From: Candidatus Bathyarchaeota archaeon
Lineage (GTDB): Archaea; Thermoproteota; Bathyarchaeia; Bathyarchaeales; Bathycorpusculaceae
Direction: 5' to 3'
NCBI GenBank assembly: GCA_963775465.1
Contig: CAVZIW010000010.1
Location: 32,001-96,000 of the forward strand
DNA: 64,000 nucleotides
The notes beneath the pieces were generated by a model. The model was not told the DNA's origin. It searched no databases and worked only from the letters and a program-made list of their open reading frames with translations. Shown here piece by piece: positions 25,900-55,150 of the stretch; the stretch's first letter is position 1; the number at the start of each line of letters is the position of its first letter. Both the position numbers and the translations under genes were made by a program.

Positions 25900-26019
25900 A
25901 GAACGCGAAAAAATTCAACTCATCTATATAAAGAATAATCCAATAACCTGTGAAAATGGCAAACACTTAATAGCCTTTCCAGAAAAGGTGTAACTCTAAA
26001 TCCAAACGGAGAACCAATA

Positions 26020-27225
26020 TTGCAAAATCAACCGGCTATAATAGCTGTTGGAAGAACAAAGTTTGGCGAATACTACGGCAAAGAACCAGAAAAGCTAATC
26101 GAGGAAGCTTGGCTTGCAGCTTCAAATGACTGCTGTATCGAACGTAAAGACCTCGAAGCGTGCTATATGTCTGACTGTCTTCTTCCCATCACAAACAAAC
26201 TGGGATTAGAAGAAGGGTTCCTCTCAGAATTAACCGAACTCCATGTACCCATGGAAGTAACCCGTTCCTTCAGCGCAGCACTTCTTACCGCTTGCCATGC
26301 TATTCAAGCAGGCGTTTATGGCACTGTTTTAGTTGGTGGAATAGAAAAAATGACTGACCGCTGGGACAAAATACGTGATGATCTTATGTTACTTGATGAC
26401 CCGTGGAGTTACTTTGCAGGTGGCACCCCTGAATCTAACCATGAATTAATGCTTCGCGCTTACATTAAAAAACATAATATTACAGGTCAAAATCTGGACA
26501 CGCTAAATCTGGCTCTCGCCGAGATAGCAGTCAAGAACCACGCCAACGCATCCAAAAACAAGTATGCTCAGTACCAAAGAAAAATTACTGTTGAACAAGT
26601 TTTAACCGCAAGAAAGCAATCTCATAAATCATTAGGGCTTTACGATTTTGCCCCCATATCTGATGGAGCATCTGCATTAATTCTCACCAATGAGTCTGTT
26701 GCAAAAGAAATAAGTGATCGACCGATCCACATTTTAGGACTTGGCGCAGGAACTGACTTCCTAAATTACCCGGCGCGGGAGGACCTATCCCGTTTTATCG
26801 CCGCTGAATATGCCATGAACACTGCTTCAAAAATGGCTAACATAGCGCCCTCAGATTTGCAGGTTTTTGAGGTTAATGATCAATCTACAGTGATGGAGAT
26901 GATTTCACTGGAAGATTTAGGTTTATACAGGCCTGGAACTGCTTGGAAAAATATTCATGAAGGTTTACAGAATAGCGAAAATAGCTACACTAAAAAGGGT
27001 ACACCCCTTTATGTGAACACTGATGGTGGTCTAAAAGCGGACGGCAACCCATTAGGGGCAACCGGCGGTGCACAGATTTTTGAGGTTTTCCATCAACTCC
27101 GCGGAACTGCAGATGAAAGGCAAATTAAAAATGCTGATGGCGTGCCAAAACAGGGCTGTGTCGTTGAATTTGAGGGGTTTGGAACCAAAGCTTATGCCAC
27201 AATACTAGGAGACAAAACTAGATGA
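26020..27225 (+). CDS. Thiolase-fold protein lacking catalytic residues (pseudo-thiolase)
   Basis: GRTKFG, GGIEKM, PISDGA and NxxGGLK are present. The ACASG loop is absent, EVHDC is EVNDQ and GHP is GNP. Confidence 0.85.
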   Translation: MQNQPAIIAVGRTKFGEYYGKEPEKLIEEAWLAASNDCCIERKDLEACYMSDCLLPITNKLGLEEGFLSELTELHVPMEVTRSFSAALLTACHAIQAGVYGTVLVGGIEKMTDRWDKIRDDLMLLDDPWSYFAGGTPESNHELMLRAYIKKHNITGQNLDTLNLALAEIAVKNHANASKNKYAQYQRKITVEQVLTARKQSHKSLGLYDFAPISDGASALILTNESVAKEISDRPIHILGLGAGTDFLNYPAREDLSRFIAAEYAMNTASKMANIAPSDLQVFEVNDQSTVMEMISLEDLGLYRPGTAWKNIHEGLQNSENSYTKKGTPLYVNTDGGLKADGNPLGATGGAQIFEVFHQLRGTADERQIKNADGVPKQGCVVEFEGFGTKAYATILGDKTR

Positions 27226-28730
27226 GTAGCGAACCTATCGAACGCCGGGTTTCGTACTTAGGAGATCGCCTTAAGGCTTGTCGTTGTCAATGCTGCGGCA
27301 AAGAATACTTCGAAGTACGCGACTACTGCAGCATTTGCGGCAGAAAAAGTTACGGAAAAATGGCTAGCATAGATCTATTTTTCGATAAAGGAAAACTTGA
27401 ACTTGCAACTTACATAAACGAACCCACAAACAAATTCATGAAACTTTCAAGTTTTATCTACGGAATCGTCTCTTTTCATGATGGCAAAATTCGGGTGCCC
27501 GCTAGACTAACCGACCAATTGCTTTGTGACGGTCAAGATGTTGACATATCAAGTTTTGAAGGCAGAGAAGTAATCCCAAGGTTCCGAAGACGCTATTCAG
27601 TCGGAAAAGGCGATGTAATTCCAACAATCTCATTAGCTTTCACCCTTGCAGATGAGTACTATCCTCACCAAGAATACAAAATCGTCCAACCAACTAAGGA
27701 ATATGAACTTCCAGGTATCATCGGCTATGGAGTCTACACTTCTCGTTTCCGTATTAAAGAAAGAAATTTGGAGCGCGCTGTACCATTCATAGATGAAGAC
27801 TCTGTTACAGCTTCCGTTGAAGCTGGAAAACTAGCGCTTATCCATTCGGGTCTGGATAGTTCGCTTGTAGGTAAAGTCTATGTTGGTTCTGAATCAAACC
27901 CGTATGCAGTTAAGCCAATTGCGTCCAAGGTAGCGCAGGTCTTGAAATTAGGTGAAGAAGACGACGATATACAAGGTGTTGACGCAGTGGACACAGAATT
28001 TGCGTGCAAAGCAGGTTCAAGCATGTTTAAGGATGCAGCTGCTCTCGTGAGTTATCCCCGTTCAAACATAAAAAACGCGATGGTAATAGGTGCAGATAAT
28101 TCGCAAGCAGCTCCACGCGGATGCCCCGGAGGCGAACTCGATACCTTTGTAGGTTATGGTGCCGCTGCATTTCTCTTTGGAAAATTAGATGTCATCGCAG
28201 AAGTTGAAGGTTGGTATTCTTGTACCTCAGACACACCTGACTTTTGGCGTCGCGATGGGGAACCATTTCCAAGCCACGGAGGACGTTTTACAGGCGACCC
28301 AGCTTACTTCAAACATGTTCGCAAAGCCGCTAGCAAACTCATGGAACAATCCAACTTGCAAGCATCCGACATTAACTATTTTGTGCCCCATCAACCAAAC
28401 CCAACGTTTCCAGTTAGAATAGCAAAAGAACTAGGCTTCAAAGACGAACAATTCTCTCCTTCACTAGTGATAAACAAGTTTGGTAACACATATTCCGCTT
28501 GCTCTCCTGCAGGTCTAGGTTCAGTACTTGACATTGCAGAACCTGATCAACGAATCTTAATGGTTAGCTACGGTTCAGGAGCCGGAAGCGACGCATACCT
28601 TCTACGAACCACAAGCCAAATTCTCGAAAAGCGAAAACGCCAAAAAATTAATGTGAAATCCCAAGCTGAAAACCCCTTCATAGAATATGTCGATTACACA
28701 ACCTATAGAAGACTCAAACTAGGAATGTAA
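27222..28730 (+). CDS. DUF35 (Zn-ribbon + OB) fused to hydroxymethylglutaryl-CoA synthase
   Basis: N-terminal CxxCG...CxxCG and OB fold. C-terminal GSES, FACKAG, HQPN, GNTYS and SYGSGAGSD motifs. Confidence 0.9.
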   Translation: MSSEPIERRVSYLGDRLKACRCQCCGKEYFEVRDYCSICGRKSYGKMASIDLFFDKGKLELATYINEPTNKFMKLSSFIYGIVSFHDGKIRVPARLTDQLLCDGQDVDISSFEGREVIPRFRRRYSVGKGDVIPTISLAFTLADEYYPHQEYKIVQPTKEYELPGIIGYGVYTSRFRIKERNLERAVPFIDEDSVTASVEAGKLALIHSGLDSSLVGKVYVGSESNPYAVKPIASKVAQVLKLGEEDDDIQGVDAVDTEFACKAGSSMFKDAAALVSYPRSNIKNAMVIGADNSQAAPRGCPGGELDTFVGYGAAAFLFGKLDVIAEVEGWYSCTSDTPDFWRRDGEPFPSHGGRFTGDPAYFKHVRKAASKLMEQSNLQASDINYFVPHQPNPTFPVRIAKELGFKDEQFSPSLVINKFGNTYSACSPAGLGSVLDIAEPDQRILMVSYGSGAGSDAYLLRTTSQILEKRKRQKINVKSQAENPFIEYVDYTTYRRLKLGM

Positions 28731-28832: not shown

Positions 28833-29696
28833 ATGAGTCAGTGTTTGATGCTTTTTTCTGACGGTGGAGCACGTGGAAATCCAGGTCCAGCAGCCATCGC
28901 ATTTGTAGCCTTAAACGAAGGAGGCGAAATAATAAAGACGGCTGCCCAATTCATTGGTATTCACACAAACAACCAAGCTGAATATCGAGCACTCTTGTTA
29001 GGTTTAAGCTTTGCTAAAGGTACCAAAACCCAAGAGGTTATCTGTCACCTCGACAGCGAACTGGTTGCAAAACAACTCAACGGCGAATATACCGTAAAAA
29101 ACTCTCAGCTTCAACAACTCTGGCAAAAAGTCCAAGAACAAAAACGATACTTTAAACAAATTATTTTTGTTAATGTTCCAAGAGAGCATTCTCAAATCCA
29201 AAGAGCAGATGCACTAGTTAACAAAACTTTAGATGAACAAGCTGCAAAAATATCAACTAAAGGATTAATCGAATTAAATCAGACTTCGAATGGTGAAGTG
29301 GAAAGTAGTATGTTTGTACATGCTAGTATTCGCACAAGCAATATGGAGCGGTCAATAGATTTTTACTCAAAATTTTTAGGGTTAAGAGTTAAGAGTCGCC
29401 GAGAAATCAAGCAGACCAACGCGGAAATAGCTTTTCTCCAAGATTCCCAAAGTAAAGGTTGCACACTAGAGTTGACATTTTATCGTGATCAAGAAAAGTT
29501 TGATCAGCCACCCTATGAAAATCGACTATTTGACCATTTAGGTTTCATAATCTTCAACATGGAAGAAACTATTTCCTGCTTGAAAAACGCTGGTGTGACT
29601 GTGACGGATGAACCCTTCAAACTAAATGAGAACACAACAATTGCTTTTATTGAAGACCCAGACGGAACCTTGATTGAGTTAATCGAACATAAATAA
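28833..29696 (+). CDS. Ribonuclease HI fused to a glyoxalase/VOC domain
   Basis: DGGARGNPG, NNQAEY, LDSEL and ADAL, followed by HxxIR...FY...LG, LELT, DHLGF and EDPDGTLIEL. Confidence 0.85.
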   Translation: MSQCLMLFSDGGARGNPGPAAIAFVALNEGGEIIKTAAQFIGIHTNNQAEYRALLLGLSFAKGTKTQEVICHLDSELVAKQLNGEYTVKNSQLQQLWQKVQEQKRYFKQIIFVNVPREHSQIQRADALVNKTLDEQAAKISTKGLIELNQTSNGEVESSMFVHASIRTSNMERSIDFYSKFLGLRVKSRREIKQTNAEIAFLQDSQSKGCTLELTFYRDQEKFDQPPYENRLFDHLGFIIFNMEETISCLKNAGVTVTDEPFKLNENTTIAFIEDPDGTLIELIEHK

Positions 29697-36071: not shown

Positions 36072-36589
36072 ATGAATCAACGAAAATAGTTTCAATTGAG
36101 GCAGGTTGATTGATGAACCCCTGAGGCTCAGGATGCAAAAGGTTCAAAACTGACAGAATTCATAAGCACGAGCCGAATCGGATTTAACCTAATTCACAAG
36201 CTTATTGCTATTTTAGCAGTCGGTTCTATCATGCATTTCTATTCCCAAGCAGTTTCGAGGAGCATAGGTTATTATAAAAGTGTGTCTTGTGCTATTCTTC
36301 ACTTTTATAGTCGTCCACTTATCGGCGTATTTTTCTCTAAAGATTTTTTCAGATTATGCTTTGTATTTCTCTGCCATCATACCATTTTTGATTCAAGTGT
36401 TTAATATTTTAACTATATAGTTGATTATATTTTGATTTATGTTGAATTCTGCATATGATAATTGACTATTAATTTTTAGTGTTTGGATATTGCAAAATGT
36501 TATATACTATTAGTTATGGAAAATAGCAGTTTAGTTGAGTGAATAGGCTTATGGCTTTTTTGCTCAATAAATTAAATGGAGAAAAAAAT

Positions 36590-39217
36590 ATGAAAATATT
36601 TAAAACTAAAGCGATAGCTACTGCAATATCTTTGCTTCTGGTGCTTAGCGTTGTTGTCTCTATCTCTAGCCTTCCTTCTGCTGATGCTTACAATACTTCA
36701 ACTCAAGATGCCATTGATGCTGGTATGAACTGGGATTTGCCCCAGGATGCTTCGAATCTTAGGCTTTTGATGTGGGAGCGGTATCAAGATCATATACCTA
36801 CTCAGGTGTATATGGTTATGTCGCCTAACCCGGTTGGTGTTGGACAGCAAGTTTCTTTTGTGTTGTTTATGCCCCAGCAGCCTCGAGGCGCAAACGCAGC
36901 TAATGACATTAGGTATTCCTACACTGTTGATGTTACTGATCCTAATGGTGTTAAAACAACTCTTGGACCTATCAAGTCTGACTCTACAGGAACTGCATAC
37001 ACGTTATACTCACCCTCAGAAGTTGGAAACTACACTGTTACCGTGAATTTCCTTGAATTACTCTATCTCTGGCAAGGATCAAGTACTGAACGAGACTATT
37101 ACGGTGTTACCTATAATAGTGCATCGTACACAAAGAATTTGATTGTCCAGCAGGAACCTGTTTTACCTACAGGTTGGACTGACCAACCCTTACCTACAGA
37201 GTACTGGGTTCGACCAATTGAAGGCACAAACACTCCCTGGTACCAGGTAGCAAGCAATTATCTCAGCGGTCCTGGCGACAATGACCTATATGGATCAGGA
37301 AACCAGTTCCAGAGGTATGGCGTTGCCCCTAACAGCGCGCACATTCTGTGGACAAAAGTCACTGAAGACGGCGGCCTAGTTGGCGGAGAGCAATTCTCTG
37401 TTCCTGGAGAAGTTTTCAATGCAGGTCACCAATATCAGACTCGGTTTACTAACCCAATAATCATGTGGGGACGTCTCTACTACGAGCTTCCAGTTACATG
37501 GGCTGGCGTTAACGGCGGCTGGATTTGTGTTGACTTAAAGACAGGCGAAACAATCTGGGAAAATAGGGACATGGGTGCATCTGGTACCGGTATATCTGAC
37601 CCGGCTTTCGGCTACTACTATGACTTAGACAACATGAATAATCACGGTGTTGTAACTCCCGGTTGGCTATTCTCAAGCAACTTTGGACACTCGATCCATC
37701 CACGCTACGGCATATATGACCAACTTCAATTAACTGGCGTTCCTTCTGGTTTTGAGGTACGCGCACAACAAGGCGAACATATCCGCGTCCAAGTTACCAG
37801 CAGCGGCAACATGTATCAATGGAACTCAAGCAAAGTCTTTGACGACTCTGAAAGCGGAGTACAAACAGCCAATAATCCCACGGATTTCGACTTTAACGTT
37901 TCAACTCCGTGGAGTGTTGGAATGTCTAGCATAAGCGTACAAGAAGTCGTTCTTGGCGAATACATCTTTGGCAGAAACGGCAGTCACCCAGTAGGCACAG
38001 GCGGTCCACGCTTTGACTATCCAAGTCCAGTAACTATATGGGCAGCAAGTCTAAAACCCGGAAGTGAAGGTCAACTTCTATACATGAAAAACATTGACAC
38101 AATACCAAATCCACCAGACGGCGGCGAAATCATGATGGAACGCGTCGGAGAAGGAGTAGCAGTTTTTGTGAAGCTCTTTGAACGACAATGGATTGGCTAT
38201 GACACCCAGACTGGCAATAAACTTTGGGAGTCAGATCCTCCGGAAGCAGAATTTAATCCATTTGGCTACTATAGCTTCCCAAGCTTGATTCATACTGAAT
38301 CTACTGCTATAGCTGACGGAAGATTGTTCACTGGTGGCTATACCGGAGCTGTGATGTGCTACAACCTAACTACTGGTCAAAAGATTTGGCAGTATGAAGA
38401 CTACACTGGCAGAACTGTATTTCCATACTTTACTTTGATGCTTGGCACGGTTGCTGATGGTAAAATCTTTGTTGGCACTCATGAGCACTCTGCTGATACA
38501 CCGCTGTTTAAAGGAAACAAAGTTCGCGCAATCAACGTTACTGACGGCTCTGAAGTTTGGGCTATGTATGGCTGGGCTCATCCTTACACGTTTGCTGTTG
38601 CTGATGGCACTTTGATCTACTGGAACAACTATGATCATCAGGTGTATGCTGTTGCGAAAGGGCCAACTTCGATGACTGTTGAAGCGCCTCATGCTGGTAT
38701 TGCTCTGGATCAAAGTCTCGTGATTACTGGTACTGTTATGGATATTTCAGCTGGTACACGTCAGCATGAGCAGGCTATGCGGTTCCCCAATGGTGTTCCT
38801 GCTGTTTCTGAGGATAGCATGAGTCACTGGATGGAGTATGTCTATATGCAGAAAGCTCGACCGACTAATGCTACTGGTGTTGAAGTATCTATCGATGTGG
38901 TTGATTCTAATGGCAACTACCGAAACATTGGCACAACTACTAGTGATGCAAACGGCGTGTTTAGTTTGGATTGGATGCCTGATATTTCAGGAAAGTATAC
39001 TGTGATTGCATCGTTTGCCGGCAGCGAAGGTTATTGGCCTTCACATGCAGAAACTGCTTTCGTAGTTGACGAGGTAGCACCAACAACAGCGCCAACGGAG
39101 GCTCCGCAGCAGTCTGCAGCTGACATGTACTTTGTTCCCGCAGTCGCAGGAATCATCGTAGCAATAGTGATTGTTGGCATTATGCTGGCTCTATTGCTCA
39201 TAAAGAAACGGCCATAA
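36590..39217 (+). CDS. Secreted, membrane-anchored PQQ-like beta-propeller protein (paralog 1)
   Basis: GGAGA RBS with ATG at 36590, signal peptide, PNPVGVGQ, PTEYWxRPI, TGxxxW propeller repeats, and C-terminal Ig-like domain + TM + KKRP. Confidence 0.85.
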   Translation: MKIFKTKAIATAISLLLVLSVVVSISSLPSADAYNTSTQDAIDAGMNWDLPQDASNLRLLMWERYQDHIPTQVYMVMSPNPVGVGQQVSFVLFMPQQPRGANAANDIRYSYTVDVTDPNGVKTTLGPIKSDSTGTAYTLYSPSEVGNYTVTVNFLELLYLWQGSSTERDYYGVTYNSASYTKNLIVQQEPVLPTGWTDQPLPTEYWVRPIEGTNTPWYQVASNYLSGPGDNDLYGSGNQFQRYGVAPNSAHILWTKVTEDGGLVGGEQFSVPGEVFNAGHQYQTRFTNPIIMWGRLYYELPVTWAGVNGGWICVDLKTGETIWENRDMGASGTGISDPAFGYYYDLDNMNNHGVVTPGWLFSSNFGHSIHPRYGIYDQLQLTGVPSGFEVRAQQGEHIRVQVTSSGNMYQWNSSKVFDDSESGVQTANNPTDFDFNVSTPWSVGMSSISVQEVVLGEYIFGRNGSHPVGTGGPRFDYPSPVTIWAASLKPGSEGQLLYMKNIDTIPNPPDGGEIMMERVGEGVAVFVKLFERQWIGYDTQTGNKLWESDPPEAEFNPFGYYSFPSLIHTESTAIADGRLFTGGYTGAVMCYNLTTGQKIWQYEDYTGRTVFPYFTLMLGTVADGKIFVGTHEHSADTPLFKGNKVRAINVTDGSEVWAMYGWAHPYTFAVADGTLIYWNNYDHQVYAVAKGPTSMTVEAPHAGIALDQSLVITGTVMDISAGTRQHEQAMRFPNGVPAVSEDSMSHWMEYVYMQKARPTNATGVEVSIDVVDSNGNYRNIGTTTSDANGVFSLDWMPDISGKYTVIASFAGSEGYWPSHAETAFVVDEVAPTTAPTEAPQQSAADMYFVPAVAGIIVAIVIVGIMLALLLIKKRP

Positions 39218-40637: not shown

Positions 40638-42089
40638 TTATTCTGAAACCTCCCTCTTTATGAGTTTCTTTAGCTCTTCAGCGAGAAGCGACAGTTGGTG
40701 CTCATTTGTTTGTACTGAGGTTTCAGTTATGTTCCCCCGCAATAATGCGTCTCTGGTTAGAAGTTCTTCAGGGTTTTCTCCCCAGGCGCGAATTATCTCC
40801 TTTAGTTGCGTAATTCTGTTGGCTTGTGTTTTTGGTCTTATGGCTAATCCTGCTGACTGGTACATGTTTCTGAGTGTTTCTACGCCTAGGCTTTGGACGT
40901 CTTCGTAGGTGTCTACTGTGTGTCCCATCATGTAATTGATGATTTCCGAGTCAATCTTTACTGCGCTCATCTGGGTCCTAAAGAATTTTCTGAGGCTATG
41001 TGTTCTGACGCTATACATCCAGCTGTCTGGTAGTTTTTTGGCGATTTTTGTGCTTACCACTAATTCGTGAACTATTTGACCTATAGTTTTCTCGGTAACG
41101 CCAATTACTCTGTCGGCGACACGGCTGTTTCGTATTAATGGTGAGTCGTCTGTTAGCTCTTCGGGCGGCGTTCTCTTGTTCCCGCGTTTTCTGTCCTCGA
41201 TGTATAGTTTTAGCAGGTGGCTTGCTTCTGCGTTGATGAAGGTATCGTAGTCGTGGTATTTTCCTTTGGTGATGTCTGCTTCAACGTGGATGTGGATGGG
41301 TACTCTGTTGGCTTCTAAGTCTTCGCGGACATGTCTGTATTTGAGTTTGGCGAATGTTCCTTCTCTGAATCCGCCTGTTGCTATAGCGGCGATTATGAAG
41401 CTTTCTCGGGTGGCTGATTTGTCTAGCATTAGGGTGATTTCTTCTGGTTTGGGTGCTCTGTCTTTGTAGACGGCTTTGCGTCTGAGAGGTTCTAAGAGCT
41501 TTACTTCAGCGCCGTTTACATGGTAGAAGGTTTTGACGGCTTTTATGCAATTGTTAACTGAGTTGGGTTTTAATCCATTGTCTTGAAGTTCTGCTACATA
41601 GTCGTTTAGGAAGCCGCTGTGATTTTGTACTTTAAGTGGATCGGGGATTGCTCCTACTGGTTTTATGTCCTGTATTATTGTGTCGGGGCTATGTCCTAGC
41701 CAAGTTGCGTATTTTCTTAGTTTGACTGTGTACATTAGACAGCTTTGATTTGAGGCTGAGCAGTGTCTGAAGAAGTGGCGTGCAACTTTTATTAGGCTCT
41801 TATTTTCGAAGATGTATGGGATTATGCTTGGTTGGTAGCTTAGGCAGGATTTTATGATGTATTCGACTAAGCCGATTTCTTGAGTTTCTAGGATTTTGTT
41901 TTGGTCTATGCTTATTGGTGTTCTGAGTTTAAAATCGTTTAAGCTTCTCTCAATGATGATGGTGTCTTGTTGGAATATCAGCGGCAGTTTAAGGTTTTTC
42001 AGTTGTTCAACGGATAGTTTGCGTGTTCGAGTTATAGCGGGGGCTATGGTTTTTGCTCTTTGGATCATGGTTTCTTCTCTCCCTTGCAA
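40638..42089 (-). CDS. Tyrosine recombinase/integrase
   Basis: Catalytic set present: R (GFREG), K (ITKGK), HSLR, MGH and Y (DTYED). Confidence 0.9.
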   Translation of the reverse strand: MQGREETMIQRAKTIAPAITRTRKLSVEQLKNLKLPLIFQQDTIIIERSLNDFKLRTPISIDQNKILETQEIGLVEYIIKSCLSYQPSIIPYIFENKSLIKVARHFFRHCSASNQSCLMYTVKLRKYATWLGHSPDTIIQDIKPVGAIPDPLKVQNHSGFLNDYVAELQDNGLKPNSVNNCIKAVKTFYHVNGAEVKLLEPLRRKAVYKDRAPKPEEITLMLDKSATRESFIIAAIATGGFREGTFAKLKYRHVREDLEANRVPIHIHVEADITKGKYHDYDTFINAEASHLLKLYIEDRKRGNKRTPPEELTDDSPLIRNSRVADRVIGVTEKTIGQIVHELVVSTKIAKKLPDSWMYSVRTHSLRKFFRTQMSAVKIDSEIINYMMGHTVDTYEDVQSLGVETLRNMYQSAGLAIRPKTQANRITQLKEIIRAWGENPEELLTRDALLRGNITETSVQTNEHQLSLLAEELKKLIKREVSE

Positions 42090-42571
42090 GTGGGGGAGTG
42101 AGTTTTTCGCTCCGTTGGTCGGAACGCATACTCATCCTTAACTATAGGCTGTGAAGAATTTAAGATCCGTTGAACGGTTTCCTGTGAAATCTGAGCTTTG
42201 ACTTTTAGTATTTCTAGCGCAATTATGTCTGATTTTAACAAGACCAAGCCAGAGGCCTTAGGATCGCCTCCATGCAGAGTCGGCGGTCCCGCATCTCTAT
42301 CCCAAGACAAAATAACATAAAGCTCGCAATCGTAGACGAGCCAACCAACAGCTTCTCTGATTTGAGGTTGCATCGCCAAAGCAGAGCTCCGGTTATACAG
42401 AACATGGTCGCGGTAGCGGACCAATATTAGGTTGAGAAGTGAGTTTAGGGGGCTGGTTTTTGCAGAACCTTCAATTGGCTCTGACTTGCAAGAATTGGAA
42501 TAGGCTTTAGTGTCAAATGCGTATTCCTCTGCAGGGATGATAAGACCAGCCTTTCCTTGCTCATCAACCAC
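42065..42571 (-). CDS. Hypothetical mobile-element protein
   Basis: ORF overlaps both neighbours in the integrase operon. Confidence 0.55.
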   Translation of the reverse strand: MVDEQGKAGLIIPAEEYAFDTKAYSNSCKSEPIEGSAKTSPLNSLLNLILVRYRDHVLYNRSSALAMQPQIREAVGWLVYDCELYVILSWDRDAGPPTLHGGDPKASGLVLLKSDIIALEILKVKAQISQETVQRILNSSQPIVKDEYAFRPTERKTHSPTCKGEKKP

Positions 42572-48318: not shown

Positions 48319-49029
48319 TTACTTCGACAATATCTCGTAGGTGAATTCAACCTCGTTTGGTTTTGTATGTGAATGAAGCCCAACACCGAGATTGTCAAAT
48401 TTGTCTGTGAAGGTAGCTGCGTAATAGCAAATCTGATCGTCCTTGTTCATTTCCAATATTTTTCCTATAAGTGGAATTACCCCTCCAGCCAAGTCCGTGA
48501 CCGTTGAGAGCATAGGATTAGCTGTTGTCGCCAAAGTGGTTAGGACTTTCTGGATGTCTTTGAACCCTTGGTTGTCGTTGACAGCTTTAAGAATTTCTGC
48601 AGCATCTCTTTGGGGCTGGTCACTTTCCACTATTTGTAGCCTAATGTCCAAGTACCGAGGTAACTTCCCAGGAGAATTCTGATATATTGCTAATCCGTTT
48701 CCTCCAATGTCTAAAACATCGCCTTTCTTGACATTTATAAATGTCTTTACATCGTATGATAACGGTTTTTCCTCTGAACCATCGGCAACTGAATAAACCA
48801 AATAGATTTCTGCATTTTTATCCCATGCCGGTTCATGGATGTTCAATATTCTGACTTTTTTTAACCTGATCATTACATCCGTAATACTGGAGTCCAAAGT
48901 CATGCGCATTAAGTTTGACGACATACTTTTCGAGAAACGCCTGCGTTCTAAATTCTCTATTAATTCCAAACTTGGTTGCTCTACAATGTCAGGCATTACA
49001 TCTGCTTTTTCTAACACAATAAATGGCAA
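48319..49029 (-). CDS. Hypothetical protein: beta-sandwich-like with an inserted amphipathic helical segment
   Basis: 236-aa ORF divergent from the protease-MBL operon, with a GGTGA RBS. Confidence 0.7.
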   Translation of the reverse strand: MPFIVLEKADVMPDIVEQPSLELIENLERRRFSKSMSSNLMRMTLDSSITDVMIRLKKVRILNIHEPAWDKNAEIYLVYSVADGSEEKPLSYDVKTFINVKKGDVLDIGGNGLAIYQNSPGKLPRYLDIRLQIVESDQPQRDAAEILKAVNDNQGFKDIQKVLTTLATTANPMLSTVTDLAGGVIPLIGKILEMNKDDQICYYAATFTDKFDNLGVGLHSHTKPNEVEFTYEILSK

Positions 49030-49176
49030 TCAAATCACCATATTATGGATGTGTTTTTTATCATATAAAATCTTTCGCTAGAATCAATATATTTTTTAAC
49101 AAAAAAAATTATTAGATTATCATAAATCAGTCAAACAGTTTTATTTGCTTGCAAATGAATTGTATACTGAGCAGAA

Positions 49177-51039
49177 ATGCAAGCAAGACTCCCTTTAATG
49201 ATTCAAGATCCCTCAACTTCAAAAAAATATAAAGATTTACCAAACTTAGGGCTGGAGGGCTTCAATCCGAAGAATGAGGAGTTCTTTCTATCAGGTCCCA
49301 TTTCCAAGCAGATCGCCGTTCTGGATTTTGATCCGGAAACAGGCAAATTGGTTAAAGGTGCAAAATGGCACAAACCACCACCAAAACGGAAAAGGGGTTG
49401 GTACGAAAACGACGGGGAAGATGAGGAAAAAAAGAGGCGATTTGACGAATACGACAAACTGAATCTGGAAGATTTGACAGCTCCGGCTTTCTTGCAAGTA
49501 AACACCTTTGCTACTGTACTTAAAACAATTTACATGTTACGCGAGAGCGAGAAGGAAAAGGACAAAGATAAAGGGGATACATTAGGGCACTCAATTACTT
49601 GGGCTAGCGGTTTGCCCCAACTGCTTGTGATTCCTAGAGCCGGACGAATGAAAAATGCGTTTTATCATAGAGAATCTAATAGCCTCCAGTTCTTCATGTT
49701 TTCTCCCAAAGATAATCCTGATCAAACGGTTTACACGTGCCTTTTTCGAGACATAGTTGCCCACGAAACAGGACACGCTATAGTAGATGCAATCGCCCCT
49801 GACCTATATCATGCCCAACAGAGTCAAGCGCTGGCAATGCATGAATCCATAGCCGATCTAACGGCTCTTCTCATGGCCATATCGAGTTGGAATCTTAATA
49901 GAATCGTTCTCAAGAAAAACCACGGTATTATCAGAGATTCCAACGACTTCAGCACTATCGCCGAAAACTGGAGAACAGAATTAGAGGAAGGGGGTAGACA
50001 TATGCGAAACTTGCTAAACAATAAGACTCTAAATTCCCTAAGGAGCGATGAATGCCATGAACTCAGCGAGGTTTTAAGTGGAGCCCTGTACAATGTGTTT
50101 CTGAAAATATATGAAGACTTCAAAGATGAACTAGAACCTCACTATGCCAAAGATCCAAGATTTAGTCGGAATCTTTGGTTACACGTTTCTCGTTCTGCTC
50201 TTTATGACTATGCTGCTGAACGCTTCAAACAGATGATTTTTCGGGCACTTGATTATCTGCCTCCCGGTGATGTCTCATTTGTTGACTATGGACGAGCAAT
50301 AGTAGCTGCCGATTCTGTCGGATACTATGGAGAAGAACGCACTCTAAAAATTCGTGACTGGATTACAAACGAGTTTTTTAATAGAAATATTATTAATGAC
50401 AAAGATGCGTTGGACGTTAGCACTTTTTTCAAAGATGATGCGTTGAATGGTTTTGATGTTTCGAATCTCTGCAAAAGTGACTGGGAGGCTTATCGATTCG
50501 CAAACAGCCCCGAAGGTCGTAGGTTGTTGTGCATACCACCTGAAATACCCTTTGAAGTACTCTCCCCTCGATTAGAGGTTAGAAAGAAACCGATTGGAAA
50601 GCCACCTCTCTGTGATCCGGCTAACATCCAAGAAACTCATGAGTGTATTTTCAAGGTTGCCTGGGATCCTATTGAAAAGAACCCGATTGGATCGGGCTAT
50701 CCGGAAAATCGCCGATTCAGAGTTGGAACAACTTTAGCACTATATTGGGAAGATGGAACTGTCCTGGCACTTTTATCTTCTGCTCCACCGCACAAAACAA
50801 ACACTGACAAACGCTACACAAATCAGAAACAGCGGTCCATTGTAGCCGATGAATTTAACGAAAAATCTGAGAACCGAACCAATTTCGTAAAATGCCTAAT
50901 TAAAGAAGGCTTGCTCAAGTTTAATCAACATTCATTTGGTCCAGACGGGCGCACTCCTCTGCTTTCCTGCATTCAAGCTGAAGATTTGGATGGTATAATG
51001 CGAATAAGAGGAGCTGCAAAGATGTTACATATCATTTAA
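49177..51039 (+). CDS. Cytoplasmic gluzincin metalloprotease (thermolysin/M4-M36-like)
   Basis: NAFY, DIVAHETGH (HExxH), HESIAD (ExxxD) and a later His (CHELS). No signal peptide. Confidence 0.85.
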   Translation: MQARLPLMIQDPSTSKKYKDLPNLGLEGFNPKNEEFFLSGPISKQIAVLDFDPETGKLVKGAKWHKPPPKRKRGWYENDGEDEEKKRRFDEYDKLNLEDLTAPAFLQVNTFATVLKTIYMLRESEKEKDKDKGDTLGHSITWASGLPQLLVIPRAGRMKNAFYHRESNSLQFFMFSPKDNPDQTVYTCLFRDIVAHETGHAIVDAIAPDLYHAQQSQALAMHESIADLTALLMAISSWNLNRIVLKKNHGIIRDSNDFSTIAENWRTELEEGGRHMRNLLNNKTLNSLRSDECHELSEVLSGALYNVFLKIYEDFKDELEPHYAKDPRFSRNLWLHVSRSALYDYAAERFKQMIFRALDYLPPGDVSFVDYGRAIVAADSVGYYGEERTLKIRDWITNEFFNRNIINDKDALDVSTFFKDDALNGFDVSNLCKSDWEAYRFANSPEGRRLLCIPPEIPFEVLSPRLEVRKKPIGKPPLCDPANIQETHECIFKVAWDPIEKNPIGSGYPENRRFRVGTTLALYWEDGTVLALLSSAPPHKTNTDKRYTNQKQRSIVADEFNEKSENRTNFVKCLIKEGLLKFNQHSFGPDGRTPLLSCIQAEDLDGIMRIRGAAKMLHII

Positions 51040-51056
51040 AAATAGAAGGTATATTC

Positions 51057-52292
51057 ATGGATAAGATTCGAGTACGCGCATATAACGTTCTCTTTGGTGA
51101 CGCTTTCTTAGTCACATTTCCAGAAACTAAGTTAGACGGCACAGTTGAAACTCGGAACATCCTTATTGATGTTGGAAATCTTCTTCGCAAAGGTGGCAGT
51201 GATAAGGTTTTCAAACCGGTTGTAGAGGACATCCTCAAAGAACTCAACGGCAGACCGCTTGATCTTTATATTATGACGCATGAACATCTCGATCATGTTC
51301 AGGGTTTGCCATATGCCGAAGAAAAACTGTACACAGAAACTGATGATGAACTTGCAAAGAGACTCAAGACCCGTTACACATGGCTCACCGCCTCATCTGA
51401 GGATGGATACTACGAAAAACACCCCAAGGCGAAGGAGAAACATTTGGAGTTCTCTGCTACCTACAAAGAAATTGACAGATTCATGCAAACACTAGAAGCA
51501 GACGTGCCTTTAACAGATAGATTATTATGGCTCAATAACTCGGACAATACCAAAAACTGTGTAAACTACTTGAAGGGGATAGGTGAGAAGACATTTTACG
51601 TTTCTCGTGCATGCGCTAGACACAAAGGAATAGTTTTTGATCCTAATGAGTGCCACCCCTTTAGCGAAGCTAGAATTGAAATTCTGGCTCCGGAAGAGGA
51701 TACATCCATTTACTATTCAAAAACTAGAATTGCACCAATGAGCTTGGGTGTCACTGAGACTTCAACTGGAAGCGGGAAGCGCCCGTCTCTAACGGATGTA
51801 TTTCCCCCTTCTGGAGTGGACGCTGGAGCTTTCTATGAATTAGTTAAAATGAGAAGAGATGGGCATTTTGATAACCTGCTTGCAATCGACAAAGCTGCCA
51901 ATAACACTAGCGTTGTGTTTTGTCTTGAATGGCGTGATTTTCGATTGCTTTTCCCAGGTGATGCGGAAAAAGAGAGCTGGAATGTAATAAACGACGTTTT
52001 TCCAAGTATTCTCAAACCGGTGCATTTCTTGAAGATAAGCCATCATGGAAGCCACAATGGGACTCCAGAACAAACGATATTAGAGAAAATATTGCCACAG
52101 ACCAGAGTTGACGACAAACCACGCAAAGCGCTTCTTTCTGCCACAAGTGAAGAAGTATACACAAACGTCCCTGACCCACAAACAGTAGATCGGATTAGAC
52201 AACGCTGCGACAACCTTTACGAAGTTGAAGAAGTAGAACTCGGAAAACACATAGATATCGAGTTTGAGGCAGAACGTATTAGCTCTGAATAA
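51057..52292 (+). CDS. ComEC/Rec2-type metallo-beta-lactamase-fold hydrolase (putative nuclease)
   Basis: GDAFL, LIDVG, THEHLDH, NNTS, LFPGDAE and KISHHGSHNGT motifs. Confidence 0.85.
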   Translation: MDKIRVRAYNVLFGDAFLVTFPETKLDGTVETRNILIDVGNLLRKGGSDKVFKPVVEDILKELNGRPLDLYIMTHEHLDHVQGLPYAEEKLYTETDDELAKRLKTRYTWLTASSEDGYYEKHPKAKEKHLEFSATYKEIDRFMQTLEADVPLTDRLLWLNNSDNTKNCVNYLKGIGEKTFYVSRACARHKGIVFDPNECHPFSEARIEILAPEEDTSIYYSKTRIAPMSLGVTETSTGSGKRPSLTDVFPPSGVDAGAFYELVKMRRDGHFDNLLAIDKAANNTSVVFCLEWRDFRLLFPGDAEKESWNVINDVFPSILKPVHFLKISHHGSHNGTPEQTILEKILPQTRVDDKPRKALLSATSEEVYTNVPDPQTVDRIRQRCDNLYEVEEVELGKHIDIEFEAERISSE

Positions 52293-52636
52293 ACAACTTT
52301 TCGAATTAACCACTAACAAGAAAGCAGCCATTGAAGAGAATCAACTGCATGCAAAGGTTGAGGTTTCCGAGTTGCAATATGGAGTTTGCATCATTTCTTC
52401 TAGATTCTTAGAGTTTTAGAGTCTTAGATTCATAGAGTCAATTTTCTGAAGAATTTTTTTTGACATAGCGTCGATTGTATAGCTTTTTAGCTAAGGTTTT
52501 CAATTTTTGGAGGGGTATAGAGAGGTCTTTCTGATTTTATTTAATCATCAGAACCTATAAAAATTAAATAATAATATTCGTGTGGCATGTTTCTATGCCG
52601 CCCAATCCGAGGAAGACCTAAGCGAACTCAAAGCTT

Positions 52637-53368
52637 TTGAGCATAAAACGCATATTTAGAGCTATGGCGCTATCTAAATTCATGGTCTTTGCGCTGGCTC
52701 TTGCTATTTCGTTCCCTCTGTGCATGGCAGAACTCACTCCAATTCCTGGAGGATATGACCCCGGCTGGGATATCGGTCCGGCAAGACCCAGTGAGTTTTT
52801 CACGATTCCGCCGAATGGAGGCAGTACAAGTTTTGTCTTCAAGTCTCTAGATTTAGAAGTCACCATAAAGGGCGCTGAAAACCAGACGGAAGATGTTCGT
52901 GGCGAATTCAGCGCAATAAAATACCTCGGCAATCCTATGGCTCGTGCAAGCTTACCATCTGACTTCAAGGCAGCAACTTTTGTCTTAGTTTCTTGCTTTG
53001 GCGTGAGTGACAGTGACATTGCTCCAAACGGCATAAAGATGAGCTTTAGCTATGATCCTGAAAAGGTCGGAAGCCCGCGGCAGATATTGAGGTATGATCC
53101 AGAAAAAGGCGTGTATTCTCCGCTTCAAACGGTTGATGATTCGCAGGCAAAAACATTGACTGCCATCATATCGACTACGCAAGGGCTCTATGCAATTGGG
53201 GGAAGCGAGCCTTCACAGCTTATTTGGGTGGCAGCCGTTGTTTCTGTCATAGTTGCAGTTGTTGTCGCAGCAATGTTTTTGATCATAAGGAAAAAGGGTC
53301 ATCTAAAGCCTTCCACAAACTGGGGTATAAAGGCTTTGCAGATTTTATCTTATCACCAGAACATATAA
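52637..53368 (+). CDS. Secreted, membrane-anchored surface protein
   Basis: Signal peptide, then a C-terminal TM helix with a basic tail. Confidence 0.65.
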   Translation: MSIKRIFRAMALSKFMVFALALAISFPLCMAELTPIPGGYDPGWDIGPARPSEFFTIPPNGGSTSFVFKSLDLEVTIKGAENQTEDVRGEFSAIKYLGNPMARASLPSDFKAATFVLVSCFGVSDSDIAPNGIKMSFSYDPEKVGSPRQILRYDPEKGVYSPLQTVDDSQAKTLTAIISTTQGLYAIGGSEPSQLIWVAAVVSVIVAVVVAAMFLIIRKKGHLKPSTNWGIKALQILSYHQNI

Positions 53369-53579
53369 AATACAACAAATAATTTTGAGGTTGTCTAATT
53401 CTATCCGCTCCAATCGGCGACAGACCTTTTGCCCGAATGTTTATGATTTAAGGATTGATTTTGGACACTTTTTTTCGGCAATAATCTTGACCAAAAAAAG
53501 ACATTTTCTTTGCCAAATTGGCAAGTCACCTATCCCTTTGAAAAAATAGGCTTCTTCAACCTGGGATTGTCTGGGATTA

Positions 53580-53783
53580 TTAGTTTGTTTTTACGTTAAG
53601 TGCGTTATTTGCCAGCTTATAATTCATAAACGCAATTAATCTAGGGCAATTTTGGAATTCATCCTTTTCGCAAAATCTTGACAATGCATCACTGTCAACA
53701 TTCCAGGGTGAGGTTTCAACTGAGGCTAGGCAAGTTTTTGTTTTATCTTCGTCTTTTCCTATTTCAAGACACACACATTGCAT
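53580..53783 (-). CDS. Small Cys-rich protein
   Basis: MQCxCL...C...C...FxxCPR pattern. Confidence 0.55.
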   Translation of the reverse strand: MQCVCLEIGKDEDKTKTCLASVETSPWNVDSDALSRFCEKDEFQNCPRLIAFMNYKLANNALNVKTN

Positions 53784-53914
53784 TCAAAGCACCTAATCTT
53801 AATTCTTGATTAATGCTTAAAATAATTTCTCAAATCTTCTTATTTTTAATACATAATATGAAAAATTATAAATATTGATTAGCCTAAATTTATCTTGTCG
53901 GAAGTGTTCTCTAC

Positions 53915-55150
53915 TTGAAAAGTGAACCAAACGACTCTGAGAAATCGAAAAACCCGATATCTGGCAAGATCGTGTTTGCTGCAGTTCTGGTAGCGACATT
54001 AGCTGTATCAAGTTTTTTAGGTTTCTATAGCCTTTGGGCTGACCAAGCTTTCAACATAGAAATAAAAAATCCCGTAGAAGCAAGGTTTCTTGATGGCAAC
54101 ATAACCTGCTTTGTCTACAATTTAACATATTCTGTAGAGAACTATTTTCCTTTTAAAAATTATACTATTTACCCCAAAATAGCAAAGAATAATTCTAACA
54201 TTTATGAACCGATCGATAATACTGCAAAAGCATTCTCTGACAATAAAATCACAATTTCTTCTTTTGAGATAAAAACAACATATGGAGACAAAGAACTCTT
54301 TTCACCGTATAAAATTATTGATCCAAGAGTTCTCCCAGTTGTGCACACTCCGGGCTTGGCTAAAACCACGCTTATCATCAATTGGAGTTACAATCAGACT
54401 ACGATGGAGGGTGGTCAATCTGACTCTTTTGCTTTATTATTAACAAATAATCCAAACTCAACTGCCACTCGTGTTTCAGGGGATGACTTGTTGCCTAGGA
54501 AGAGTTTTGATCTTTTGTGGAATACTCTTCCTTTCGTTGTCTTTTGGGCTTTGGGGGTTGTGGTTTCCTGGATAGTTTTTGAACAAGGCAAAATTAAGGA
54601 TGCGTTTGGTAATTTAACAAATTTTGATGTTGAAAGCTATCAAAAAGCTGGAAATGCTGAAAAGAAAAAATTGGAAGACAACTTAAATGAAATTATAGCT
54701 TTCCCGAAAAAAGAAAAAAGTTGGAATCGGCTATGGTTTGGATTGAGCATGTTTATAGTCAAAAATTTGACCAGCAAAAAATGTAAAGAATATAGCGAAG
54801 GTAGCTTCAAAGTCTCTCCATACATGAAAAGGTCTCTCAAGGATATCTTTGGAAAGTATGAAAAAAATACGCTTGAGAAGATTGAGGACACACTTCCTGA
54901 GATTAAAACAATTCTCATATTTTTTGGCTTTCTGGCTTCATTAGGCCTTACTTTTTCTTTCAACATCGGAGCAGTTGGAGCATTAATTTACGTGGTGATT
55001 TTATTCTATGTTTTTTTCAATATGGGGGCATCCATTCAATTTGTCTGGAAATCAAAAACAGACCGTAACTGGATAATTGCAACTTTTATTATAGCACTGG
55101 TCATAGTAGTCCTTTCAAGCATAGTTTCAGTTCTGCGAGTTTTATCATAG
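53915..55150 (+). CDS. Hypothetical multi-pass membrane protein
   Basis: 411-aa ORF with N-terminal TM, extracellular domain and further TMs; low GC. Confidence 0.65.
   Translation: MKSEPNDSEKSKNPISGKIVFAAVLVATLAVSSFLGFYSLWADQAFNIEIKNPVEARFLDGNITCFVYNLTYSVENYFPFKNYTIYPKIAKNNSNIYEPIDNTAKAFSDNKITISSFEIKTTYGDKELFSPYKIIDPRVLPVVHTPGLAKTTLIINWSYNQTTMEGGQSDSFALLLTNNPNSTATRVSGDDLLPRKSFDLLWNTLPFVVFWALGVVVSWIVFEQGKIKDAFGNLTNFDVESYQKAGNAEKKKLEDNLNEIIAFPKKEKSWNRLWFGLSMFIVKNLTSKKCKEYSEGSFKVSPYMKRSLKDIFGKYEKNTLEKIEDTLPEIKTILIFFGFLASLGLTFSFNIGAVGALIYVVILFYVFFNMGASIQFVWKSKTDRNWIIATFIIALVIVVLSSIVSVLRVLS

Follow-up and report, generated by a model that had tools for sequence, protein, structure and literature searches.

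A 64,000-nucleotide (nt) stretch of the genome of a Candidatus Bathyarchaeota archaeon (contig CAVZIW010000010.1; genome 92% complete, 15 contigs), hereafter called the window, contains a gene for a thiolase-fold protein that has lost the catalytic residues of a thiolase and is coupled to the gene for a 3-hydroxy-3-methylglutaryl-CoA (HMG-CoA) synthase (HMGCS) carrying a fused DUF35 domain. The Cys-less protein is conserved across the order to which the archaeon belongs and adjoins the fused HMGCS wherever it was found. The explanation that we favour, with a probability of roughly 0.6, is that it serves as a non-catalytic partner of HMGCS, contacted through the fused DUF35 domain and contributing structure and part of a CoA-binding cleft, and that acetoacetyl-CoA is supplied by a separate thiolase. 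In archaea, isoprenoid lipid synthesis is believed to rely for its first two steps on a thiolase/HMGCS/DUF35 complex, in which the unfavourable thiolase reaction is channelled forward. The features of the locus, including its open reading frames (ORFs) with their lengths in amino acids (aa), are as follows.

26020..27225, + strand: thiolase-fold ORF without thiolase catalytic residues (401 aa, TTG start)
26008-26011, + strand: GGAG located 8 nt upstream of the TTG (26020-26022) that opens the thiolase-like ORF, the orthologues of which align from the same first residues
27222..28730, + strand: DUF35-HMGCS fusion ORF (502 aa, ATG start)
27208-27211, + strand: GGAG located 10 nt before the ATG of the HMGCS ORF
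27222..27225, + strand: ATGA overlap of the thiolase-like stop and the HMGCS start (translational coupling)
27222..27640, + strand: DUF35-like N-terminal domain of the fusion (~aa 1-140), a four-Cys zinc ribbon followed by an OB-like part
27699..28730, + strand: HMG-CoA synthase domain of the fusion (~aa 160-502), with E224/C262/H390/N422 intact

The first-pass annotation of the window had described a full-length thiolase-like ORF that overlaps the next gene by ATGA, and both the frame and the overlap were found as described.

The 401-aa protein belongs to the thiolase superfamily and has the SCP2/archaeal-type thiolase fold. Two Pfam domains, Thiolase_C_1 (PF22691; 3.8e-25) and Thiolase_N (PF00108; 2.8e-10), were detected above their cut-offs, and the best sequence relative of solved structure is 6esq_A, the thiolase of the Methanothermococcus thermolithotrophicus complex (E=4.9e-45). 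The same chain is the best Foldseek match (TM score 0.86) of an AlphaFold2 monomer model of the protein, for which the predicted local distance difference test (pLDDT) score and the predicted TM score (pTM) are 84.6 and 0.89, respectively. The scores against NCBIfam thiolase models lie below the cut-offs, i.e. 265.9 vs 420 for NF004720 and 212.2 vs 600 for NF053570 (AcCoTHIOL_METTL). Catalytic positions were read by aligning the protein to the canonical thiolase encoded in its own genome and to 6esq_A. The nucleophile stretch reads PMEVTRSFSAALL in the window protein and TEAACGSSGVAL in the canonical thiolase of the same genome, and four motifs were found to be altered.

Nucleophile loop: TEAACGSSG in the canonical thiolase, TR----SFS in the window protein (four residues shorter, no Cys, Arg82)
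HDCF motif: EVHDCF in the canonical thiolase, EVNDQS in the window protein (N286-D-Q288-S)
GHP motif: GHPVGATG in the canonical thiolase, GNPLGATG in the window protein (G-N343-P)
C-terminal loop: NVGGSG in the canonical thiolase, EFEGFG(TK) in the window protein (NxGGxG replaced by E383xEGFGTK390)

The nucleophile loop had previously been read as MEVTRSFSA with no Cys. The loss of the Cys is real, but this ungapped reading is slightly off and hides a four-residue deletion, in or beside which the nucleophilic Cys of the canonical thiolase aligns. The changes of EVHDC to EVNDQ and of GHPxGATG to GNPLGATG held in the alignment with the Methanothermococcus thiolase, and the C-terminal loop adds a fourth altered motif to the three reported earlier. 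Judged from its sequence, the protein lacks the nucleophilic Cys, the HDCF motif, the GHP His, and the NCBIfam score expected of an acetoacetyl-CoA thiolase. According to the available text of PMC12960953, the His of HDCF was shown to be essential in the archaeal complex by an H284A substitution.

These substitutions are family-wide. In total, 34 loci were read, one from the window genome, 21 from its congeners, and 12 from further families in the order; in a whole-genome search, the relatives carry the Cys-less protein at 57-98% identity. The thiolase-like gene is open at full length and is directly followed by the fused HMGCS gene in all 34 loci, and Arg82, Gln288, and Asn343 (GNP) likewise occur in every one of them. 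The HDCF His is replaced by Asn in 13 loci, Tyr in 20, and Cys in 1, and 20 of the 34 read YDQS. In a 25-member alignment of the Cys-less family, 103 of the 401 positions are invariant, and no Cys column is invariant or conserved at 90% or more. When a sequence library was clustered at 50% identity, the family was represented by one full-length cluster (64% identity), with the next match at 39%. The ratio of non-synonymous to synonymous substitutions (dN/dS) was calculated by the NG86 method for those pairs within the genus whose dS was below 1.5 in each of the four genes examined (5 of 153 pairs). One locus fetched as 'canonical' from genome G019 (L070) is a different paralogue (43% identity) and was excluded from these pairs. 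The median dN/dS was 0.058 for the Cys-less thiolase (range 0.034-0.078), 0.031 for the canonical thiolase (0.030-0.074), 0.023 for HMGCS (0.020-0.056), and 0.077 for the standalone DUF35 (0.044-0.155). Within the genus, identity to the window genome's copies is 69-79% for the Cys-less protein and 77-88% for the canonical thiolase. The Cys-less protein thus appears to evolve somewhat faster than its working paralogue, yet under strong purifying selection.

Genome-specific decay, raised as a possibility in the first-pass annotation, does not account for this pattern. The loss of all catalytic residues is what a decaying pseudogene or an annotation artefact might look like, but such an origin is refuted by the 34 open frames, the dN/dS of ~0.06, and the 103 invariant columns, and its probability is negligible. 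Parts of both genes were also found in contigs of RNA libraries (7 pieces of 151-241 nt from 3 runs of 2 studies, 4 of which are at least 99% identical to the window), none of which crosses the junction between the two genes; they are weak evidence against decay, as contigs of this kind cannot show transcription or co-transcription.

The second ORF is identified by its profile and sequence matches as an archaeal HMG-CoA synthase (NF003274, 356.8 bits vs a cut-off of 244; 6esq_I, 9.5e-75) and is the sole HMGCS in its genome. Its catalytic tetrad was located by counting along the alignment to 6esq_I, using the archaeal numbering E82/C114/H238/N270 given in PMC12960953, and the resulting E224/C262/H390/N422 are invariant in 20 of 20 orthologues. 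The DUF35 fusion and the intact Glu, Cys, and His had already been recognized, and the Asn (N422) can now be added. Residues 17-132 of the fusion match the DUF35 chain 6esq_E at 2.9e-7 (1.9e-8 with a profile), and the zinc-ribbon residues C22, C25, C36, and C39 are invariant across the aligned orthologues. Because the Pfam DUF35 models give no match to this region at E<=0.01, the domain is considered divergent; its assignment to DUF35 is based on the four-Cys zinc ribbon and the likeness to known DUF35 proteins.

A two-chain model of the HMGCS fusion and the Cys-less protein, built with custom alignments of 20 and 25 rows, reached an ipSAE of 0.82, and the best of 3 controls reached 0.00. Of 157 solved complexes, 116 attained this ipSAE mark, as did 2 of 215 mismatched pairs. 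At least 95% of the contacts are common to the runs, and the pLDDT of the partner is at least 91. All predicted contacts of the HMGCS chain lie in residues 10-139, corresponding to the DUF35 domain, and those of the Cys-less protein lie in residues 116-147, 201-204, and 249-256. Residues 114-135 of the Cys-less protein, a stretch rich in invariant residues, have a pLDDT below 50 in the monomer model. In this complex model, the fused DUF35 domain is placed on the Cys-less protein.

The distribution of the pair was analysed in 251 genomes sampled from the class, with the Cys-less protein called at E<=1e-90. It was found in 63 genomes, i.e. in 62 of the 68 genomes of the window's order and in 1 of the 183 outside it (G075), and by coordinates the fused HMGCS gene immediately adjoins it on the same contig in all 63. 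Five genomes of family f11 (G034, G081, G087, G256, and G270) have neither the fused HMGCS nor the Cys-less thiolase and instead contain an HMGCS-like ORF of ~457 aa that scores 85-97 bits on the archaeal HMGCS model (e.g. G034:C14:41197-42411); loss of the fused HMGCS goes with loss of the Cys-less thiolase. Outside the order, 13 sampled genomes contain a DUF35-HMGCS fusion (~40-53% identity), and most others contain an unfused HMGCS of ~350 aa. A thiolase gene lies directly upstream in all 11 of the fusion loci fetched from other orders, and the Cys, HDCF, and GHP are kept wherever readable in 10 of these thiolases, the eleventh (L048) being degenerate.

In a maximum-likelihood tree of 57 rows, the Cys-less proteins form a clade of 17 rows (SH-aLRT 100, stem 0.74), which is sister, with a support of 99, to the active thiolases encoded upstream of fused DUF35-HMGCS genes in other orders. 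The other thiolase of the window genome belongs to a different paralogue group. The likely history is that the DUF35-HMGCS fusion came first and that catalysis was lost later in the operon thiolase, at the base of the order, with the gene being kept. At the Gln288 and Asn343 positions, the member that branches off first (L050) carries Pro and Ser, respectively. Two proteins within the clade of fusion-upstream thiolases are also degenerate, namely that encoded at L048:4600-5784 (- strand; genome G044), with no Cys loop, HDATS, and GHP kept, and protein P0124, with no Cys, HDSY, and GNPLGATG; they may represent intermediate stages or losses that arose independently. Several genomes of the order have tandem arrays of three thiolase-family genes, as at G031:C9:1062-5525, G029:C42:5612-9525, G025:C29:27362-30902, and similar loci.

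The window genome contains two thiolase-family genes. The second, on contig C8 (C8:128163-129311; 497 bits, above the cut-off), encodes a protein with CGSSG, EVHDCF, and GHPVGATG that is 34% identical to the Cys-less protein, and a standalone 134-aa DUF35 gene overlaps its end. The search for another active thiolase proposed in the first-pass annotation therefore has a positive answer in this genome. The same canonical thiolase and DUF35 pair is present in 17 of the 18 same-genus loci fetched for it, the 18th being another paralogue, and a thiolase scoring above the family cut-off was found in 133 of the order's 151 genomes that are at least 90% complete. An intact HMG-CoA reductase gene is located at C6:232703-233800. 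Outside the window, a second copy of this gene at the start of a contig (C5:131-1226) contains one TGA and two TAA codons.

In the scheme that we propose, the 401-aa ORF would be orthologous to the thiolase subunit in the archaeal thiolase/HMG-CoA synthase/DUF35 complex. It would no longer be able to act as a thiolase because the acyl-accepting Cys is gone, both HDCF residues and the GHP His are replaced, and no family-conserved Cys is present, and it would have been retained since HMGCS needs a partner. The DUF35 adaptor, fused to the HMGCS N-terminus, would clamp the Cys-less protein at a loop region (~residues 114-147), and the thiolase-fold subunit probably still provides its half of the shared CoA-binding cleft. 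Acetoacetyl-CoA would be made elsewhere, in the window genome by the canonical thiolase and DUF35 pair on C8, and HMGCS would then condense it with acetyl-CoA. In the solved complex, as described in the available text of PMC12329534, DUF35 tethers thiolase to HMGCS, and one CoA-binding site is common to both enzymes; it is because of this shared site that retention for structure and for the CoA cleft is proposed. The pseudo-enzyme scaffold suggested in the first-pass annotation is supported as an interpretation, the scaffolding itself being a role that we infer.

Several observations weigh against this proposal. The earlier expectation that acetoacetyl-CoA comes from elsewhere agrees with the canonical pair in the window genome, but about 11 of the 151 genomes that are at least 90% complete show only one thiolase match, with a score like that of the Cys-less protein (G355, G117, G146, G220, G241, G318, G326, G033, G059, G310, and G311). 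For these, either implication drawn in the first-pass annotation, acetoacetyl-CoA from another source or a different chemistry, may hold. By coordinates, a search with two thiolase families found only the Cys-less gene in G117, G220, G241, and G033, and a standalone DUF35 was not found in these four or in G059. HMG-CoA reductase is present in G117, G220, G033, and G059, in all of which an acyl-CoA carboxyltransferase was not found; G117, G220, and G033 also show no convincing 3-hydroxyacyl-CoA dehydrogenase and no second FabH-like gene. If the Cys-less protein is a pure scaffold, such genomes therefore have no visible source of acetoacetyl-CoA. Since ~5% of each genome is unassembled, several cases with no second thiolase are expected by chance, and gaps could explain part of them; both sampled members of genus g20 (G117 and G220) and one 100%-complete genome are harder to dismiss in this way. 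The replacement residues R82, Q288, N343, E383, E385, and K390 are themselves invariant, and invariant residues at replaced active-site positions are not obviously needed by a mere scaffold. In the two-chain model, invariant residues are not significantly enriched at the interface (11 of 30 vs 103 of 401; Fisher p=0.11), and the HMGCS catalytic domain does not touch the partner. The complex model may also have passed through memory of 6ESQ; as a like complex has already been solved, the pass shows likeness to 6ESQ rather than binding of this copy.

A malonyl-CoA route (NphT7-like) was rejected, with the carboxyltransferase found in 0 of 5 genomes and a second FabH-like gene in 0 of 5. Gene order was uninformative as to whether the canonical thiolase has really been lost: the CbiB-like gene next to the C8 thiolase shows no synteny even among relatives with a retained thiolase, and it was not found in G117, G220, or G059.

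The single-thiolase genomes would be understandable if the Cys-less subunit and HMGCS could still turn acetyl-CoA into HMG-CoA, with Cys262 of HMGCS as the sole covalent catalyst and a pocket formed by Arg82, Gln288, Asn343, Glu383/385, and Lys390 binding or activating a second acetyl-CoA or holding the acetoacetyl arm. Genomes that have the pair and HMG-CoA reductase and show no other thiolase-superfamily gene or acyl-CoA carboxyltransferase, three of them also without 3-hydroxyacyl-CoA dehydrogenase, argue for such a non-canonical catalyst, as does the invariance of the replacement residues across the order; the Cys-less proteins of genomes in which a second thiolase was not found share the motifs of the window protein. 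We nevertheless consider it unlikely, given that no conserved Cys is available for an acyl-enzyme, that the HDCF His position varies among Asn, Tyr, and Cys within one genus, that the earliest branch carries Pro in place of Gln288 and Ser in place of Asn343, that the canonical thiolase is kept in 133 of 151 genomes, and that the open PMC and bioRxiv literature searched holds no precedent. A bolder form, which we regard as quite improbable, is that the pair constitutes a self-sufficient, thiolase-independent entry into the mevalonate pathway, with the HMGCS Cys used for both C-C bond formations; the Arg82/Gln288/Asn343/EGFGTK pocket would hold or activate the CoA-bound partner across the shared cleft. 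If true, it would explain near-complete genomes that have HMGCS and HMG-CoA reductase and lack a working thiolase, a FabH-like enzyme, and an acyl-CoA carboxylase, and would possibly cover many Thermoplasmatota as well.

The protein could instead have been repurposed for another reaction of CoA esters, for instance an aldol or retro-aldol reaction like those of Ltp2 and Sal or the decarboxylation known from thiolase-like proteins, that would feed or regulate HMGCS. The available text of PMC12329534 describes DUF35-bound thiolase-fold aldolases with Tyr in place of the HDCF His (YDHF, YDCY) and no nucleophile Cys, which recalls the YDQS of 20 of the 34 family members; 6ok1 and 9myr are among the fold matches of the window protein, and its pocket residues are invariant. 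The Tyr position is, however, Asn in the window protein and Cys in one relative, and nothing equivalent to the second catalytic residue (Tyr or Cys) was recognized. HMGCS is the only partner, with no hydratase beside it, the genomes searched have no acyl-CoA carboxylase to supply malonyl-CoA, and, in structure as in sequence, the protein best matches true thiolases from the HMGCS complex. The chance of repurposing accordingly seems small. We give little credence to a set of live and dead subunits, in which the Cys-less protein would join the C8 thiolase, either in a mixed oligomer or by docking of the C8 pair, so that channelling is kept. Live/dead pairs are known within the thiolase superfamily from the KS-CLF of type II polyketide synthases, and two thiolases and two DUF35 modules co-exist in most genomes, as reflected by the canonical thiolase in 133 of 151 genomes and the pair in 17 of 18 genus loci. 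The two thiolases are, however, only 34% identical and fall into different paralogue groups on the tree, and some genomes show no second thiolase.

Elsewhere in the window, the 287-aa ORF directly 3' of the HMGCS gene (28833-29696, + strand) is a fusion of an RNase H-like domain and a glyoxalase/VOC domain. A series of ORFs (167-620 aa) for which Pfam gave no match at E<=1e-5 occupies positions 40638-42571 (- strand) and 48319-55150, near two large PQQ-repeat/Ig-like proteins encoded at 36539-39217 and 58745-61309.

Cys-less thiolases are not confined to the Bathyarchaeia. Among 21 aligned representative homologues of the wider family, 15 have no nucleophile Cys, and the named members of the Cys-less clusters are from Thermoplasmata and Heimdallarchaeia. 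A search of genome records seeded with an alignment of 13 Cys-less representatives, and thus biased towards Cys-less proteins, yielded 80 loci, in 65 of which HMGCS lies beside the thiolase. The 33 loci labelled Thermoplasmatota in this biased draw comprise 27 with a Cys-less thiolase beside HMGCS, 2 with a Cys-less thiolase and no HMGCS in the fetched stretch, and 4 in which the Cys is kept. In the Cys-less operon thiolases among them, the nucleophile loop reads EAAGASGG, EASTASGG, and similar (e.g. L134:3489-4655 of Thermoplasma), the Cys of HDCF is usually also lost, and the GHP His is often lost. From the tandem thiolase genes described above and the 15 of 21 representatives without the Cys, mixed live and dead thiolase sets may be common in archaea.

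A silenced yet conserved thiolase subunit is therefore found across an abundant order of Bathyarchaeia and, independently, in Thermoplasmatota. Either HMGCS cannot do without it for a purpose other than catalysis and channelling is not required, or the complex makes HMG-CoA by chemistry that has yet to be described. The arrangement matters because it is found in two or more lineages of archaea and because no other acetoacetyl-CoA source is seen in some genomes. The question bears on the engineering of mevalonate entry and on pathway reconstructions from metagenomes that score 'acetyl-CoA C-acetyltransferase', the name given to these proteins by one source.

The closest known system is the archaeal complex of 6ESQ. 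All three of its modules are present here, each with its best PDB match in 6ESQ (6esq_A, 6esq_I, and 6esq_E), the genes are adjacent, and a contact between DUF35 and the thiolase-fold protein is predicted by the two-chain model. Unlike in 6ESQ, the thiolase subunit lacks any catalytic residue, and DUF35 forms the N-terminal part of HMGCS instead of a protein of its own; as far as can be predicted from the residues present, canonical channelling from acetyl-CoA cannot work with the Cys-less subunit. The gene order is thiolase-HMGCS, whereas it is the other way round (HMGCS-thiolase) in the 65 loci with HMGCS beside a thiolase, among which a DUF35 match lies downstream in 52 and upstream of HMGCS in one (L124). 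The Cys-less operon thiolases of Thermoplasmatota are likewise linked to HMGCS and devoid of the nucleophile Cys, but they form another lineage, in which the loop has its full length, the HD motif mostly retains its His, and DUF35 has a gene to itself; the loss in Thermoplasmatota is considered independent because of the loop length and the mostly kept HD His. No description of these thiolases was found in the open PMC and bioRxiv literature searched.

The Ltp2-ChsH2(DUF35) and Sal-Shy(DUF35) systems (6OK1, 9MYR; PMC12329534) resemble the pair in having no nucleophile Cys and a DUF35 fused to the partner enzyme, and in the Tyr that often replaces the HDCF His. According to the available text of that paper, these enzymes catalyse retro-aldol reactions, use a defined catalytic Tyr/Tyr or Tyr/Cys pair, and are partnered with a hydratase. 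The corresponding position here is Asn, Tyr, or Cys across the family and Asn in the window protein, the partner is HMGCS, and the similarity is weak (6ok1_A, 7e-6). Multiple thiolase/DUF35 pairs have been noted in archaea in bioRxiv 10.1101/2024.07.05.601840. In PhlABC, MucABC, and PfACAT/HMGS-DUF35 (PDB 5M3K, 9VBO), as described in the available text of PMC12960953, which also records an HMGS-DUF35 fusion in Pseudomonas fluorescens, the HMGS-like subunit has lost its E-C-H-N tetrad and the thiolase keeps its Cys. These complexes share with the present pair a tripartite architecture with one silenced thiolase-superfamily subunit, but the arrangement is mirrored, since here HMGCS is intact and the thiolase is silenced, as the first-pass annotation had already recognized for PhlABC. 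The bacterial complexes serve secondary metabolism or thiolysis, whereas the pair described here lies in the archaeal mevalonate pathway. In full-text searches of open PMC and bioRxiv papers, no silenced thiolase partnered with an active archaeal HMGCS came up, and the nearest published counterpart of the arrangement is the bacterial mirror case of PMC12960953.

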